Source: a virus. From it: a stretch of DNA of 6,429 nt. Below the pieces are notes generated by a model that worked only from the letters and a program-made list of their open reading frames with translations, was not told the origin of the DNA and searched no databases. The stretch lies in the UHGV virus genome UHGV-0386119; one strand, given 5' to 3'. The first letter of the stretch is position 1. Every line of letters begins with the position of its first letter. Positions 1-6,429 of this stretch are shown here, in pieces. Position numbers and translations under genes: made by a program.

Positions 1-20
1 CCGCGTCTTGACTAATTGGC

Positions 21-688: not shown

Positions 689-1873
689 ATGGGATTTTTA
701 AGTAAATTAGACCCGAATAGTTGGTTTAGCTCTGCCCTTAGCGGCGGAGCTTCTCTTATTGGTAATATTGTTGGTAATCAACAGCAGAATGCCAATATTG
801 ATAAACAGATAGCCTTCCAACGTGAAGAAAATGAGAAAGCAAGAGCGTTTAATAGAGTTATGGCAGAACAAGCAAACCAATGGAGTATTGACCAATGGAA
901 TAGAGAAAACCAGTACAATAGTCCTGCAGCTATGCGTCAGCGTCTTCGTGATGCAGGTGTCAATGCTGATTTATTCTATGGTGGTAATGCTCTAAACACT
1001 GCTTCTTCTTCCCCTTCTGTTACTCCTGTTGCCCCTGCTACACCTACGGATGTTTCCGCTATTGGACAGAAAGCTACGATTGGAGACATCACTAACAATG
1101 TTGTAAATCAATCTCTTGCAGCTGCACAGATTCGGAAACTAGAAGCTGAGAAAGGTAAGACAAGGCAAGAAACTGAGAATCTTAAGGTTGAAGGCAAGAT
1201 CCTCTCTGCTGATGCTCTTACACGTGCTGCACAGAACGAGCAAGCTTTGGAGATTGGACGATCTGTCATTTATGTAAATCACTCTATTGGAGACTTGAAT
1301 CATAAAGAAGCTGAGCTAGCATCTGCCCGTATAACTGAAGCTGCTGCTAATACCGATTTGTTGTATAAGAAAGCGGAAGAAACCAAAGCTAACATCAGAA
1401 ATATTAATGCGAATACCGCAGCTACACGTTTTGGTATGATGATGCGTACGAAAGAGTTTCGACAGCGTGTGGCAGAATTTCAGGAACAAGTACGTGTTAA
1501 TGATTCCTCTATTCGCCTCAATTATGAGCAAGCAGCTACATATTTGGCTACCCGCTCCGCTACTGTATTGAACATTAATGCAGACACCGCCCTTAAGTCA
1601 GCAGGTATTAAGACCCAATACACTTCTAGGCATGAGATGCGTGCCCGTACCAGCATGTATGGTAAGCTCGACCGCCTCATTAATATACAAGGCGATCAAG
1701 CTGCGTTTAATCTTGACTCTGATAAGACGTATAAAAACCTTGAAAGAGGTGTTAACCTTGTTACAGGTGTAATAGATTCCGTTTCTGGTGTGATCGGCTC
1801 TGCTGGCTCGTTCATTTCCGGTACAGGAATTGGACTGCCCAAGCCTGTAGGCGTTAAAGGTCTACGTAGGTAA
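689..1873 (+). CDS. minor capsid / DNA pilot protein (Microviridae VP2-like, phiX174 H analogue)
   Basis: 394-aa ORF preceded by GGAG with an 8-nt spacer. The N-terminal block ...NRENQYNSPAAMRQRLRDAGVNADLFYGG... resembles, from memory, the conserved N-terminal motif of gokusho/alpavirus VP2 pilot proteins. A long central A/E/K/Q-rich predicted coiled coil follows (AAAQIRKLEAEKGKTRQETENLKVEGK...), then a Ser/Pro/Thr linker (ASSSPSVTPVAPATPTD), and a C-terminal glycine-rich hydrophobic segment (VNLVTGVIDSVSGVIGSAGSFISGTGIGLP) typical of pilot proteins that form a DNA conduit. Position immediately upstream of rep is also typical. Confidence 0.72.
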   Translation: MGFLSKLDPNSWFSSALSGGASLIGNIVGNQQQNANIDKQIAFQREENEKARAFNRVMAEQANQWSIDQWNRENQYNSPAAMRQRLRDAGVNADLFYGGNALNTASSSPSVTPVAPATPTDVSAIGQKATIGDITNNVVNQSLAAAQIRKLEAEKGKTRQETENLKVEGKILSADALTRAAQNEQALEIGRSVIYVNHSIGDLNHKEAELASARITEAAANTDLLYKKAEETKANIRNINANTAATRFGMMMRTKEFRQRVAEFQEQVRVNDSSIRLNYEQAATYLATRSATVLNINADTALKSAGIKTQYTSRHEMRARTSMYGKLDRLINIQGDQAAFNLDSDKTYKNLERGVNLVTGVIDSVSGVIGSAGSFISGTGIGLPKPVGVKGLRR

Positions 1874-1877
1874 CTCT

Positions 1878-1910
1878 GGCGCCCTTGTTCGGGCGCCTTT
1901 TACGATTTTT
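1878..1910 (+). terminator. rho-independent terminator-like hairpin downstream of VP2
   Basis: Perfect 7-bp GC stem GGCGCCC (1878-1884) / GGGCGCC (1891-1897) with 6-nt loop TTGTTC, followed by the T-rich tract TTTTACGATTTTTT (1898-1911), 5 nt after the VP2 stop codon. Confidence 0.6.
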
Positions 1911-1927
1911 TCCAAAATCGTTCGCTG

Positions 1928-1953
1928 GAACTTGATAATATATAAGCAACTGA
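1928..1953 (+). other. candidate rolling-circle (+)-strand origin / Rep nick-site motif (phiX174-ori-like AACTTGATA followed by an AT-rich spacer)
   Basis: GAACTTGATAATATATAAGCAACTGA. The phiX174 30-nt origin is CAACTTG|ATATTAATAACACTATAGACCAC, nicked after the G. The shared 9-mer AACTTGATA lies at 1929-1937 and is followed by an AT-rich stretch, in the intergenic region just upstream of the rep gene and just downstream of a strong hairpin. This is pattern resemblance only. Confidence 0.3.
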
Positions 1954-2029
1954 CACACCTTGTGTACCAACCGTTTACGGTCATTGCGATTTGATGTAAA
2001 GTGCTCCTTCCGTGAGCTAATAATTAGTT

Positions 2030-3418
2030 ATGAATAAAGATATATTTTGCCTTAACCCTGTTATCATACAAGCTCATACTCTTGCTTACAACTTGTCTTT
2101 GTATAAGCGTTATCATACTCCTAATGGTATGGTATTTATCGATGAGGATGTTGCTGCGACATATCGTTACTATTTTCCTAAATATAAATATTCTTGTCGT
2201 CGCTTAGGTGTAACTATTGATAATGTAGATGAATTCTACATACCCACATTCGATGGTGAGACCATATCTATGTTTATGGTCGTTCCCTGCGGCAAGTGTA
2301 ATCTCTGTCGTGATAAGAAAAAACGTGAATGGTCGTTCCGTGCCATTTGTGAGAATGTATATTCTACCTCTCAGCCTCTGTTTATTACATGTACATATAA
2401 TCCTAGGCATTTGCCTAAACATGGTGTATTTAAGGAAGAGTTTCAACTATTCATGAAACGTCTTCGCATAAACTTGACTCGCAAAGGTATTGATTCCTCG
2501 AATATTCGTTATTTTGCTGTTGGCGAATATGGTCATAAGTCTGGTCGTCCTCATTATCATGCTATATTATGGTCGTTCCCTTCTGCACAGTTCCCAAACA
2601 TTAGCGCTGTATTACATTTCATCGAACGTTGTTGGAGTGTACCCACCGGAGAGTATCTTCCTGACGGTACGCCTGTCACTGACTCCCTTGGTTTTTGTCT
2701 TGTAAAACCTTGCGATAAAGGTGTTATTTCCTATGTCATGAAATACATGAGAAAAGAGCCTGCTGTCCCTAAAGGATGTCGTCCTGTGTTCTTCTTGTCC
2801 TCTCGTAAAAATGGAGGTCTCGGTGCTCGCTATGCCCGTGATTATAAAGATTTTTATATGAAACACCCTGAGTGTCTGGATATATCTGTTACAGACCCGT
2901 TTTCCGGTAAGATTGAAACTGCATTCCTCCCGTCGTATTTTAAACGATTGTATTATCCTAGTAATTCCGCTGTATTAGATAAACCTACTCGTGATGCATT
3001 TAAGAAGTTTACGCTCCTTATTTCTGAACGTATTCAGAATGAATATCAATTAAATAAACTGCTCGGAGAACCTCTTCAGCCAAAGATTTCAAAGCTTGAA
3101 AAAGAAATTTATAAGAAATTTTGGTTTTTAAAAGTACAAACCTATTGCAAACCTGAAATACTTAATCCTGATTCTCATTACTATAATCGTATCTATAAAC
3201 GTAACCTTGCTATTGAGCTGGAATTAGACTATTATATTCGCTTCCTGTCATTGGTCACCTATGATGATTCATATATTTCTATCCGTTCTGAACTGCTTGA
3301 AAAAAGAGACTTTTCTCTTAGGCGTAGATTTGCTTCAAAAGAACCGCTATCTTTAAATGATGTTAATTATAACATAATTCAGAGCATAAAACTTGCATAT
3401 GAAAAAGAAATATTGTAA
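2030..3418 (+). CDS. rolling-circle replication initiation protein (Microviridae VP4 / phiX174 gpA-like HUH endonuclease)
   Basis: 462-aa ORF with all the hallmark RCR motifs. A Cys cluster PCGKCNLC sits at aa 86-93 (about 2285-2308), as seen near the N-terminus of gokushovirus VP4. Motif I is LFITCTYN (aa 117-124), motif II (HUH) is GRPHYHAILW (aa 172-181, about 2543-2572), and motif III with two catalytic tyrosines is VISYVMKYMRK (Y235/Y239, about 2732-2746). The conserved SSRKNGGLGARY follows. N-terminal (about 80 aa) and C-terminal (about 190 aa, K/E/Y/L-rich) extensions exceed the compact gokushovirus VP4 (about 300 aa). Alternative in-frame starts exist at 2270 and 2276 (MFMVVPCGKC). 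Confidence 0.9.
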   Translation: MNKDIFCLNPVIIQAHTLAYNLSLYKRYHTPNGMVFIDEDVAATYRYYFPKYKYSCRRLGVTIDNVDEFYIPTFDGETISMFMVVPCGKCNLCRDKKKREWSFRAICENVYSTSQPLFITCTYNPRHLPKHGVFKEEFQLFMKRLRINLTRKGIDSSNIRYFAVGEYGHKSGRPHYHAILWSFPSAQFPNISAVLHFIERCWSVPTGEYLPDGTPVTDSLGFCLVKPCDKGVISYVMKYMRKEPAVPKGCRPVFFLSSRKNGGLGARYARDYKDFYMKHPECLDISVTDPFSGKIETAFLPSYFKRLYYPSNSAVLDKPTRDAFKKFTLLISERIQNEYQLNKLLGEPLQPKISKLEKEIYKKFWFLKVQTYCKPEILNPDSHYYNRIYKRNLAIELELDYYIRFLSLVTYDDSYISIRSELLEKRDFSLRRRFASKEPLSLNDVNYNIIQSIKLAYEKEIL

Positions 3419-3423
3419 ATTTG
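3392..3423 (+). promoter_or_regulatory. candidate Bacteroidetes-type promoter (-33 TTG ... -7 TAAATTTG) for the small-ORF/capsid transcription unit
   Basis: TAAATTTG at 3416-3423 matches the Bacteroides sigma-AB -7 consensus TAnnTTTG. A TTG lies about 21 nt upstream (3393-3395). The predicted start near 3430 precedes the AGGGAG Shine-Dalgarno (3437-3442) and the ATG at 3451. The motif overlaps the VP4 stop codon. Confidence 0.35.
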
Positions 3424-4230: not shown

Positions 4231-6429
4231 ATGTCAAACATTTGGAATGCAACCCTAGAACATAGTAATAATGTAAAGCAGAATACATTTGATTGGACAC
4301 ATATTAACAACTTGACTACTCAAATAGGTCGTATTACGCCTATTCAGTGTGAATTAGTTCCTGCAAAAACATCTTTTCGTGTGAAGCCTATTCCGGCATT
4401 ACAACTTATGCCTATGGTATTTCCTATACAAACACGTATGCGTGCTAGTATTGCTTACTTTCGTTACCCTCTTCGTGCTCTTTGGAAAGATTACAAAGAC
4501 TTTATAGGAAATTTTCGTGAAGGACTTGAGGAACCTTACCACGATTTTCGTAATCAGTCTATGATTGATAATATGTTAGGCACAGGTAAACTTATGGATT
4601 ATCTAGGTATTCCTACTACTATTGTTGGAGACTACGGTAATGTATTATATCAAACTGCACGTCCTATTATGAATGGTAATTCTACAGTTCCGTTTAAACT
4701 TCCTAATGCTTCTGGAGTTCCTAATAATCTAAGCGCCTTGGCTACTGTTGTTTCCGGAAAAACTTTTGATTCCTTGTATACCAAAGGTGATGTTTATGGT
4801 TATCCTTGGATTGTGCAACCTATTCCGCTGGCTCATGCTATTACTGATAAGAGTCAGACTTTAAAGTTTGATACTTATACACTTGGCAAGGTTACTGTTG
4901 ACAAGGTAAAAACCAACTTTTATTATTCCCTGTTTGATTCTAAAGGTGTTGAAAAAGGTACGTTCTCTATGAGTCAAGCTACCATAGAAGGTGATAAGGT
5001 AACTGTTGTGATCCCTGTTAAGCTGTCGGATATTTCTTATATTATGGTCTATGGCTATAATGGTGCAACTAATAATGAACTTATTAATTCCGGTCAGAAT
5101 CTCGAAATGGGTATCTCTTCTCTAGTTTACCCGTATAGCGATCCACAGGTAGCTACAGGTCTTACTGTTGGAACTTCTCCGTATTATAACAGTACATCTC
5201 CGAATAAGGATAAACAGATCAAAATTGCTGCTTATGCTGCGCGTGCTTATGAAGGTATTTATAACTCCGTTTATCGTGACAATCGTAACAATCCATATTA
5301 TATCAACGACGTTGTCCAATATAACCAATGGATTCCAACTTATGAAGGTGGAGCCGATACTCATGCTTATGAACTTCATTATGCTAATTGGGAAAAAGAT
5401 TTCCTTACGACTGCCGTTCAATCACCACAACAAGGTAATGCACCTCTTGTAGGTATTACTACTTATGACCAAGTTACTAGAGTTTGCGATGAACAAGGTA
5501 ACCCTACATTAACGCAGCAGACAAAAGTAGCTATGGTTGATGAAGATGGAAAACGTTACTCTCTTGAATTTGAATCTGATAATGAAGAGTTGAAAGGTGT
5601 CAAATATGTGGAACTTGATAACGGTACAGCCGTTCGTTCTGCACGTTCGCTTTTTGATTTGGTGACTAGCGGTATCTCTATTACTGATTTGCGTAATGTA
5701 AATGCCTATCAGAAGTTTCTAGAGTTTAATATGCGCAAAGGTTACTCATATAAAGAAATCATCGAAGGTCGTTTTGATATTAAAGTGCGTTACGCTGATT
5801 TATTGCTCCCTGAATTCTTTGGCGGCTTCGCTCGTGATATTAATATGAATGCCATTTCGCAAACTGTAGATCAGACTGTTGACGGTGACGGCTCTTACAA
5901 GGACGTTCTTGGTTCGCAAGCAGGTGTAGGATATTTCCGTGGCGGTTCTGATGCTAACATTGAATGTTTCTGTGATGAAGAAAGTATTATTATGGGTTTA
6001 TTGGTAATTACCCCGTTGCCTGTTTATACCCAATTGTTACCGAAACCCTTCTTATATCGTGGTCTCTTGGATCATTTTAATCCAGAGTTCAATAATATAT
6101 CATTCCAACCAATCACCTATAAGGAAGTATGCCCAATTCAGGCGTACAACGCTAATCCTGACTCATTGACGGAAACCTTTGGTTACCAAAGACCGTGGTA
6201 TGAATATTGTCAGCGTTATGATCAGGCTCACGGCTTATTCCGTACTGATTTGTCTAACTTCTTGATGCATCGAGTGTTTGATAAAAAGCCGGAACTTGCT
6301 CAAAGCTTCTTAACAATAGATCCTGACCAGGTTACAGATGTATTTAGCGTTACAGATGTTACGGATAAAGTCTACGGACAGATTTTAATTGATTGCACCG
6401 TAAAACTCCCTGTCGCTCGTGTTGCAATA
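4231..6429 (+). CDS. major capsid protein (Microviridae VP1 / phiX174 F-like), 3'-partial at the window edge (at least 733 aa); wraps to a TAA at 13-15 if the molecule is circular
   Basis: Uninterrupted frame-1 ORF from the ATG at 4231 to the last base of the window. The N-terminus ...FDWTHINNLTTQIGRITPIQCELVPAKTSFRVKP... resembles the conserved VP1 N-terminal jelly-roll strand of gokushovirus/alpavirus capsids. The length far exceeds gokushovirus VP1 (about 550 aa) and is consistent with Bacteroidetes-associated microviruses. Gly/Tyr/Asn-rich beta-rich composition throughout. Confidence 0.88.
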   Translation, partial: MSNIWNATLEHSNNVKQNTFDWTHINNLTTQIGRITPIQCELVPAKTSFRVKPIPALQLMPMVFPIQTRMRASIAYFRYPLRALWKDYKDFIGNFREGLEEPYHDFRNQSMIDNMLGTGKLMDYLGIPTTIVGDYGNVLYQTARPIMNGNSTVPFKLPNASGVPNNLSALATVVSGKTFDSLYTKGDVYGYPWIVQPIPLAHAITDKSQTLKFDTYTLGKVTVDKVKTNFYYSLFDSKGVEKGTFSMSQATIEGDKVTVVIPVKLSDISYIMVYGYNGATNNELINSGQNLEMGISSLVYPYSDPQVATGLTVGTSPYYNSTSPNKDKQIKIAAYAARAYEGIYNSVYRDNRNNPYYINDVVQYNQWIPTYEGGADTHAYELHYANWEKDFLTTAVQSPQQGNAPLVGITTYDQVTRVCDEQGNPTLTQQTKVAMVDEDGKRYSLEFESDNEELKGVKYVELDNGTAVRSARSLFDLVTSGISITDLRNVNAYQKFLEFNMRKGYSYKEIIEGRFDIKVRYADLLLPEFFGGFARDINMNAISQTVDQTVDGDGSYKDVLGSQAGVGYFRGGSDANIECFCDEESIIMGLLVITPLPVYTQLLPKPFLYRGLLDHFNPEFNNISFQPITYKEVCPIQAYNANPDSLTETFGYQRPWYEYCQRYDQAHGLFRTDLSNFLMHRVFDKKPELAQSFLTIDPDQVTDVFSVTDVTDKVYGQILIDCTVKLPVARVAI

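Follow-up and report, generated by a model that had tools for sequence, protein, structure and literature searches.

A conserved bipartite motif upstream of the Rep gene as a candidate viral-strand replication origin in an Alpavirinae-like microvirus

The stretch of DNA analysed here (UHGV virus genome UHGV-0386119, 6429 nucleotides (nt), hereafter 'the window') is the complete circular genome of a microvirus and carries, among others, genes for the capsid protein VP1, for a VP2-like product and for the VP4-like replication protein Rep (Table 1). In the non-coding gap between the VP2-like open reading frame (ORF) and the Rep gene, the + strand reads GAACTTGATAATATATAAGCAAC (1928–1950). An initial annotation, made from the letters alone, had placed this motif correctly and had described it as a phiX174-like core of the CAACTTG type followed by an AT-rich spacer. 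Core and spacer are indeed there, but the conserved unit turned out to be bipartite: the core, 16 nt and then TGACAC. Since homologues of the window's Rep are abundant in gut viromes and also occur as integrated elements in Bacteroides, we assign the window to a Bacteroides-associated, Alpavirinae-like phage.

Two conserved boxes between VP2 and Rep

The two parts of the motif, designated box 1 and box 2, are separated by an AT-rich spacer. The predicted nick within box 1 is intergenic and lies 95 nt upstream of the Rep ATG; the TGACAC of box 2 (1951–1956) begins 16 nt past it, resulting in the layout CTTG / ATAATATATAAGCAAC (16) / TGACAC. Genomes of relatives were fetched by Rep homology and not by the motif, and the DNA upstream of Rep was aligned for 36 distinct VP2–Rep spacers with a mean column identity of 56% (alignment A2). 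Box 1 and box 2 were the most conserved columns of the spacer. AACTYGA was kept in 36 of 36 sequences, always on the Rep strand, so that the comparison of related spacers proposed in the initial annotation came out in favour of the motif. Both AACTYGATA (1929–1937) and AGCAACTGACAC (1945–1956) remained near-invariant down to Rep identities of ~37–45%. The only box 1 variants among the distinct relatives were AACTCGATA, AACTTGATT and AACTTGACA; the first of these is found in L087, L089, L090 and L091 (Rep 37–44% identical), which carry AACTCGATA...GTAACTGACAC and read TAACTCGATAAGTATATAGTAACTGACAC. The order of elements in the spacer is H1, H2, 7–9 variable bases, box 1, an AT-rich stretch of 7–8 nt, box 2, H-B and H4, where H1, H2, H-B and H4 denote the stems discussed below. 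The composite CTTGAT-N13-16-TGACAC occurs a single time in the window (1931–1956, + strand) at an expectation of 0.01, was matched in 1 of 200 shuffled sequences, and in Rep-oriented loci it likewise has one copy, without exception on the Rep strand. It is this composite, together with its conservation, that stands above chance.

Further copies of the core in the window were not regarded as origins. A shorter copy, CAACTTGAC at 4308–4316, had already been located correctly and suspected to be coincidental; it has no partner box, and we rejected it as an origin. A second exact copy of the 9-mer AACTTGATA had been missed: it lies within VP1 at 5612–5620, and the full match is the 12-mer GGAACTTGATAA (5610–5621). 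This stretch spans the codons V-E-L-D-N, of which the residues E-L-D-N are conserved. Its Leu codon CTT has been retained by 27 of 29 relatives, and none of the 26 conserved Leu columns scores higher (mean 0.56). Synonymous changes nevertheless disrupt the copy, both in the closest relative (which reads GAG CTC GAT) and in six others. As it encodes conserved residues, lacks a TGACAC partner and is synonymously broken in relatives, it was rejected as a second origin, and we treat it as coincidental despite its unusually constant Leu codon.

As a side observation, contigs L013 and L014 are identical across the region save for a deletion of exactly CTTG from AACTTGATA (L013 ~5157; L014 2864–2872). 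One end of the deletion coincides with the predicted cut; aberrant termination or an error of assembly could have produced it, and we regard it as an anecdote.

The boxes are flanked by several stems, two of them upstream and two downstream. In DNA folds, 1922–1952 is unpaired between two hairpins. H1, the GC hairpin after VP2, combines a stem of 7 base pairs (bp) with TTTT and was not listed by a terminator scan that needs 5 T in 8 bases. Relatives carry a GC hairpin and a T-run at the same position with stem sequences that differ by lineage. The hairpin had been given its correct coordinates (1878–1897) in the initial annotation and counted there as part of a classic origin arrangement; most simply, it is an element of the terminator type behind VP2 that probably does not belong to the origin core. 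The outer helix of H2 is 93% paired in the alignment, with compensatory versions in L016, L033, L035 and L036, and the H2 sequence is conserved in the window's clade and absent from the L103-like clade described below. H2 could serve Rep as an accessory site, or the complementary strand as a priming signal. Downstream, the window's H-B stem has 8 bp and a single bulge and encloses small hairpins at 1953–1965 and 1970–1981 (folds). In relatives, GCAACTG pairs with CAGTTGC ~45 nt downstream (96% paired), and 4 of the 7 pairs show compensatory changes, for example GTAACTG/CAGTTAC in 8 sequences. H4 is 97% paired, shows compensatory pairs (ATTC/GAAT, ACTC/GAGT) in 12–15 sequences and abuts the ATG in some relatives; rather than being an element of the origin, it probably controls translation of Rep at the RNA level.

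The non-coding region 16–373, which follows VP1, contains an 18-pair hairpin of alternating CG/TG with a T-rich tail and a T-rich block (especially 112–151, 24–60); both recur in relatives with varied sequence. A hairpin loop in this region had been named as an alternative nick site. We discarded an origin at this place as the region holds no core-plus-TGACAC (CTNG...TGACAC) module. Its conserved hairpin is a candidate for a terminator or a complementary-strand (−) origin, either of which fits better than a viral-strand (+) origin.

Table 1 Position of genes, motifs and stems in the window
Feature	Position	Strand	Basis
Capsid gene VP1 (Pfam Phage_F)	4231 across the window end to stop 13–15		
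VP2-like ORF	689–1873		
H1, GGCGCCC/GGGCGCC, loop TTGTTC, then TTTT	1878–1901 (hairpin 1878–1897)	+	DNA fold
H2, hairpin ACGATTTT/AAAATCGT, loop TTCC, directly 5' of the nick core	1902–1921	+	folds
Box 1, AACTTGATA, nick core with predicted cleavage G1934/A1935	1929–1937	+	conservation, identity with phiX174 and pC194
AT-rich spacer ATATATA between the boxes	1938–1944	+	sequence varies in relatives, AT-richness stays
Box 2, AGCAACTGACAC, predicted Rep recognition/binding element	1945–1956	+	conservation, fixed spacing
H-B, long-range stem GCAA(C)TGAC (1946–1954) / GTCATTGC (1980–1987)	1946–1987	+	read from sequence
H4, hairpin GCTC/GAGC, loop CTTCCGT, 13 nt before the Rep ATG	2003–2017	+	covariation
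Rep (VP4-like) gene	2030–3418	+	Pfam PF23343, E = 7e-18
Rep HUH motif H175-Y176-H177	2552–2560	+	
Predicted catalytic tyrosines Y235 and Y239 of Rep, in YVMKY	2732–2746	+	

The module in distant microviruses

The same arrangement recurs far beyond the close relatives. Among 97 microvirus genomes, again collected without using the motif, CTNG-N12-20-TGACAC was present on the Rep strand in 79 versus 9 on the opposite strand, and the minus-strand matches were heterogeneous, unrelated sequences. In 55 distinct modules, the gap between core and TGACAC amounted to 16 nt in 39 cases, 17 nt in 13, 18 nt in 2 and 15 nt in 1, hence 52 of 55 modules have a gap of 16–17 nt. The box 2 sequence ACTGACACC was the second most widely shared Rep-strand 9-mer among 40 gokushovirus-like genomes with a Rep that is ~30% identical.

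In gokushovirus-like genomes, a CTTGAT-like core is displayed in the loop of an 8–18 bp hairpin with a lineage-specific stem and with TGAC at its 3' foot, as in GTGGGAACCAATA[CTATCTTGATA]TATTGGTTCCCAC-TGACACC, GGGACATATAGG[TTACTTGAT]CCTATATGTCCC-ACTGACAC and AGCAATGTA[GTTACTTGATAA]TACATTGCT-AACTGACACC (loops in single square brackets). Detection was performed genome by genome in place of a covariance model, the 5' arm not being alignable in columns owing to the varying loop length. The detector accepted hairpins of 8 or more pairs with a CT[ACT]G[AT] core within the loop and with TGAC following at the foot, and was controlled with shuffled sequences and the opposite strand. It reported the hairpin module on the Rep strand of 34 of 44 genomes, on the opposite strand of none of the 44 and in 10 of 880 shuffled genomes. 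Hairpins with loops of the CTTGAT or CTTGTT type were also found in cultured phages: Chp2 has a 14-bp hairpin with the loop TCTACTTGAT between VP3 and ORF8, phiMH2K shows the loop ...CTACTTGTTGTAA (3307–3324 of NC_002643), and SpV4 reads tggggcatat[ATTACTTGTTATA]atatgcccca-tTGACGAC.

Two Alpavirinae-like genomes without a Rep-adjacent module, L088 and L093, carry gcattgtcta[ACTTGA]tagaaaatgc-ACAACTGACAC right after VP2 and 400 nt upstream of Rep. Because the loop ACTTGA directly precedes ACAACTGACAC in these genomes, we link box 1 of the window to the loop core of the hairpin-type modules. The modules are intergenic, at distances of ~100 to ~2000 nt from the Rep start and with small genes in between in some genomes. 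The boxes are present in phages of Bacteroides and occur in a recognisable variant form in phages of Spiroplasma, Chlamydia and Bdellovibrio. Such sharing across hosts points to recognition by a phage protein; Rep is the only conserved DNA-processing protein.

We also scanned 2.9 million viral contigs for AACTTGAT-N6-14-AACTGACAC and obtained 86 stretches, ~70 of them in microvirus contigs of 4–9 kb with the same flanks. About a dozen stretches in large non-microvirus contigs without the flanking architecture were taken as chance matches. A separate clade (L103, L105, L107–L109 and ~30 further loci from the scan) consists of microviruses of 6.2–6.9 kb with an identical 28-nt module, AACTTGATATATGTAGCACAACTGACAC, which lies ~530 nt upstream of Rep and is preceded by a different hairpin, GGACCGGGTGAAACATCCGG, in place of H2.

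A candidate rolling-circle origin and its alternatives

By its sequence, the window's Rep is an HUH nuclease with two tyrosines that are four residues apart. H175, Y176, H177, Y235, K238 and Y239 were invariant in an alignment of 30 homologues. PF23343 was the sole Pfam match: Rep_1 did not match the protein even at E-values up to 10, and a search of PDB sequences with a Rep profile returned no meaningful relative. The profile Phage_GPA gave a sub-threshold match (E = 0.12) to the same stretch that holds the HUH and tyrosine motifs. In protein A of phiX174, Tyr343 and Tyr347 show the same two-tyrosine arrangement (2026 preprint).

We propose, with a probability of roughly three in four, that 1929–1956 is the core of the viral-strand (+) rolling-circle origin of this phage, at which Rep would cut between G1934 and A1935, a position suggested by analogy with phiX174 and pC194. 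Following this argumentation, Rep would recognise AACTTGATA, the AT-rich 7 nt and AGCAACTGACAC on the replicative form, and the AT-rich stretch would melt. One tyrosine would then cut the + strand at G1934/A1935 and remain on the 5' phosphate, while a host polymerase, starting from the 3' OH, copies through the Rep gene and on around the circle. At the regenerated site, the second tyrosine would cut and the first would join the ends, so that a circular + strand is freed. The TGACAC of box 2, located 16–17 nt downstream, may act as a positioning or binding element, and the flanking hairpins (H2 upstream and the H-B stem) may be accessory or serve another function.

Several observations weigh against this proposal and were taken into account in its probability. 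(i) In the window taken by itself, similarity to phiX174 is not above chance, neither for the 9-mer nor for the 30-mer: AACTTGATA with up to one mismatch has 3 matches where 3.08 are expected, the phiX 18-mer has no match in the window at up to 3 mismatches, and an ungapped comparison of 1928–1957 with the phiX 30-mer yields 17 of 30 identities, whereas other window positions reach up to 18 and shuffled sequences 17–22. The site upstream of Rep proposed in the initial annotation is hence upheld by its conservation, and not by likeness to the whole phiX origin. (ii) The conservation of box 2 equals or exceeds that of box 1, and the two look alike (AAC-TGAcA); the cut could therefore be made in box 2. 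(iii) Half of box 2 lies inside the covarying H-B stem, which could mean an RNA or single-strand function. (iv) The window's clade shows no support for a hairpin around box 1: the columns in question (105–109/137–141) are 52.5% paired, equal to shuffled and slid controls. A candidate hairpin GTTGCT/AGCAAC, which is perfect in L025–L030, was for this reason rejected as a conserved feature. (v) Two of the three cultured phages lack an exact TGACAC past the hairpin, namely Chp2 (TGATAG) and phiMH2K (TCACAG), and no module was seen in Chp1 and a few other genomes. (vi) The literature searched holds no cleavage, binding or 5'-end mapping for any microvirus outside the phiX group.

But could the module be the origin of the complementary (−) strand, where host primase or RNA polymerase recognises the hairpin region? 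In phage G4, primase begins the primer at a CTG that adjoins a hairpin. In a G4-like manner, the 3' foot of the gokushovirus-like hairpins is followed by A/G-CTGAC or GTGAC, and box 2 of the window holds a CTG (1950–1952). This CTG lies inside the H-B stem, however, and the hairpin that is present in gokushovirus-like genomes has no counterpart abutting it in the window. In the window's clade, the site lies amid several covarying hairpins, and the nearest prior work reported conserved, covarying Cap–Rep hairpins in two other clades and read them tentatively as signals for (−)-strand initiation (Olo Ndela et al. 2022). We nevertheless consider a (−) origin unlikely. The conserved loop CTNG↓WY (arrow, cut) is identical to proven Rep cut sites, the spacing runs colinear with the (+) origin of phiX, and the window's clade keeps the boxes without an enclosing hairpin. 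In addition, a host priming signal should not keep both loop and TGACAC across phages of Bacteroides, Spiroplasma and Proteobacteria. Both origins may simply adjoin, with H2 or H1 as the (−) signal.

A second explanation takes the boxes for transcriptional or translational control of Rep, i.e. a promoter, an operator or an mRNA leader, instead of a cut site. In all genomes examined, the module precedes Rep, TGACA resembles a sigma-70 −35 box, and the terminator-like hairpin after VP2 may leave Rep in need of its own promoter; in pUB110, the origin-bound Rep also represses its own promoter. The distance between module and Rep, which varies from ~100 to ~2000 nt with genes in between, argues against a promoter or leader function, and hosts with different promoter types share the boxes. 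Promoters of Bacteroides follow the consensus −33 TTTG / −7 TAnnTTTG. At up to one mismatch, no such −7 box occurs in 1874–2029, while exact ones start at 196 and 3416; neither was a sigma-70-type site listed on the + strand of the spacer, nor did any Rfam family match in the window. H-B and H4 covary as RNA structures do; they may well control Rep at the RNA level or serve as single-strand signals, roles that are compatible with a cut in box 1. Control of Rep as the function of the boxes themselves thus appears quite improbable to us.

We give similarly little credence to a third explanation, in which the region is an origin and Rep cuts elsewhere, either in box 2, which repeats box 1 in degenerate form (AACTG↓ACAC), or in the loop of H1 (CTTGTT, 1884–1889). 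Box 2 is slightly more conserved than box 1 and survives alterations of the latter, for example in L040 (CTCTCGTCC...CAACTGACAC). The hairpin-type modules, in contrast, expose the CTNG↓WY core in the loop and have TGACAC at or in the stem, and in L088 and L093 the ACTTGA of the loop comes directly before ACAACTGACAC, which ties box 1 to the loop core. H1 loops often read TTGTTA or CTGTTC, like the CTTGTT loops of some gokushovirus modules, but they vary widely (TGTCC, TATTA, CTTAT) and are followed by a T-run as in a terminator. The proven sites of phiX174 and pC194 are CTTG↓AT. Finally, a chance resemblance without function, for which the chance-level similarity of 9-mer and 30-mer within the single window could be quoted, is practically negligible in view of the position-specific conservation in dozens of diverged genomes, the strand bias, the fixed spacing and the shuffle controls.

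Beyond the window, the comparison suggests one ancestral (+) origin common to essentially all Microviridae, composed of a CTNG↓WY core, 16–17 nt and TGACAC(C), and colinear with the 30-nt origin of phiX174. The core would sit on a hairpin loop in gokushovirus-like phages, and the hairpin would have been lost independently in the clade of Bacteroides phages and in the phiX group. We hold this broader claim with less confidence than the one on the window, the odds being somewhat in its favour. Gokusho- and alpa-type microviruses are the dominant single-stranded DNA phages of gut and environmental viromes, and in the literature searched a replication origin is defined only in the phiX174 group. 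The candidate presented here is precise, conserved and strand-specific, which makes the origin question testable with purified Rep and short oligonucleotides. It would also provide a natural zero coordinate for circular microvirus genomes and a cis element for Bacteroides replicons or packaging vectors. If the family-wide origin holds true, a single assay design (Rep plus an oligonucleotide of ~45 nt) would define the origin for the whole family, and the motif could serve to orient and rotate metagenomic microvirus genomes in their thousands and to annotate them.

Some features of the window and its relatives lie outside this question. The ORF at 374–685 (103 amino acids), situated between the non-coding region and VP2, has no Pfam match; its start (MAKRI...KAQL) and length are kept in relatives, and it is annotated as hypothetical in GenBank relatives. 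The sole exact TAnnTTTG boxes in or touching non-coding DNA are found at 196–203, upstream of this ORF and VP2, and at 3416–3423, where the box overlaps the Rep stop and precedes small ORFs and VP1; both are likely promoters. One relative, L082, is integrated in a 3.7-Mb contig of Bacteroides sp. f07 and flanked by 20-nt direct repeats, ACATAATAATGATTATTCCC and ACATTATAATGATTATTCCC (4937–4956 and 11405–11424, 6468 nt apart). The right repeat lies 25 nt past the Rep stop. The repeats are dif-like, in keeping with integration of the dif/Xer type as put forward by Krupovic and Forterre (2011). Integration at the motif was rejected, as the origin module of L082 is internal and intact between the repeats.

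Comparison with known origins

The origin of phiX174 and G4 (Bullavirinae) is the 30-nt sequence CAACTTG↓ATATTAATAACACTATAGACCAC, which is cut by protein A. In the phiX174 record it occupies 4299–4328 with the origin feature at 4306, and protein A cuts its site CAACTTG↓ATA at G4305/A4306 (2026 preprint); origin and nick position had been given correctly in the initial annotation. AACTTGATA equals positions 2–10 of this origin (9/9) on the viral, coding strand, the first base in the window being G and not C. An AT-rich stretch follows the cut in both phages, and by register the AT spacer of the window (1938–1944) corresponds to origin positions 11–17. Read as CTTG / ATATTAATAACACTAT (16) / AGACCAC, the exact 30-nt phiX origin has the same register as the window. 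Synonymous changes in the phiX codons Q107 (CAA) to D115 (GAC) are deleterious (2026 preprint), which suggests that the functional element reaches the 3' box. Both phages combine an HUH initiator whose two tyrosines are four residues apart with an origin that, in the window's clade as in phiX, has no enclosing hairpin. They differ in that the phiX origin is located inside gene A and the window's is intergenic, the whole 30-nt sequence is not conserved in the window beyond chance level, box 2 reads TGACAC instead of AGACCAC, and the window's Rep is only distantly related, judged by its Phage_GPA score. Most other microviruses outside the phiX group differ from phiX by showing the core on a hairpin loop.

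A further identity exists with plasmid pC194, whose origin is quoted as TATTAT↓CAAGATAAGAAAGA, which equals TCTTTCTTATCTTG↓ATAATA on the other strand (PMC5037232). The string CTTGATAATA of the window is identical to the pC194 nick string CTTG↓ATAATA in 10 of 10 positions (PMC5037232). As in the window, the origin of the pC194 family lies upstream of the rep gene. Origins of this family such as that of pUB110 have no hairpin at the nick, like the window's clade, and the single-strand origin is usually found just upstream of the double-strand origin (PMC5037232), a position taken by H1 and H2 in the window. In contrast, RepA of pC194 is a Rep_1 protein with one tyrosine and a glutamate that acts a single time in each round, whereas the window's PF23343 protein has two tyrosines, and no TGACAC box is described for pC194 (PMC5037232).

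Nick sites in hairpin loops are classic for HUH replicons, from the nonanucleotide stem-loops of circo-, gemini- and nanoviruses to the plasmids pT181 and pMV158. The gokushovirus-like relatives of the window follow this pattern, with the core in the loop and a covarying stem, while loop sequence and Rep family differ and the window's clade does without the hairpin. To our knowledge, a 3' box at fixed distance such as TGACAC is not a feature of these origins.

In the literature searched, a (+) origin was nowhere described for microviruses of the alpa or gokusho type. This literature included the founding Alpavirinae papers and genomic surveys and covered the older papers on Chlamydia phages and SpV4 sparsely, so that a prior mention is possible. 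As a rolling-circle origin, the proposed site would be of the phiX174/pC194 kind, and the family-wide module, with its TGACAC at fixed distance and its usual display on a hairpin, would be the newer part. The cut sequence CTTG↓AT of phiX174 and pC194 would have been retained across very distant HUH initiators.

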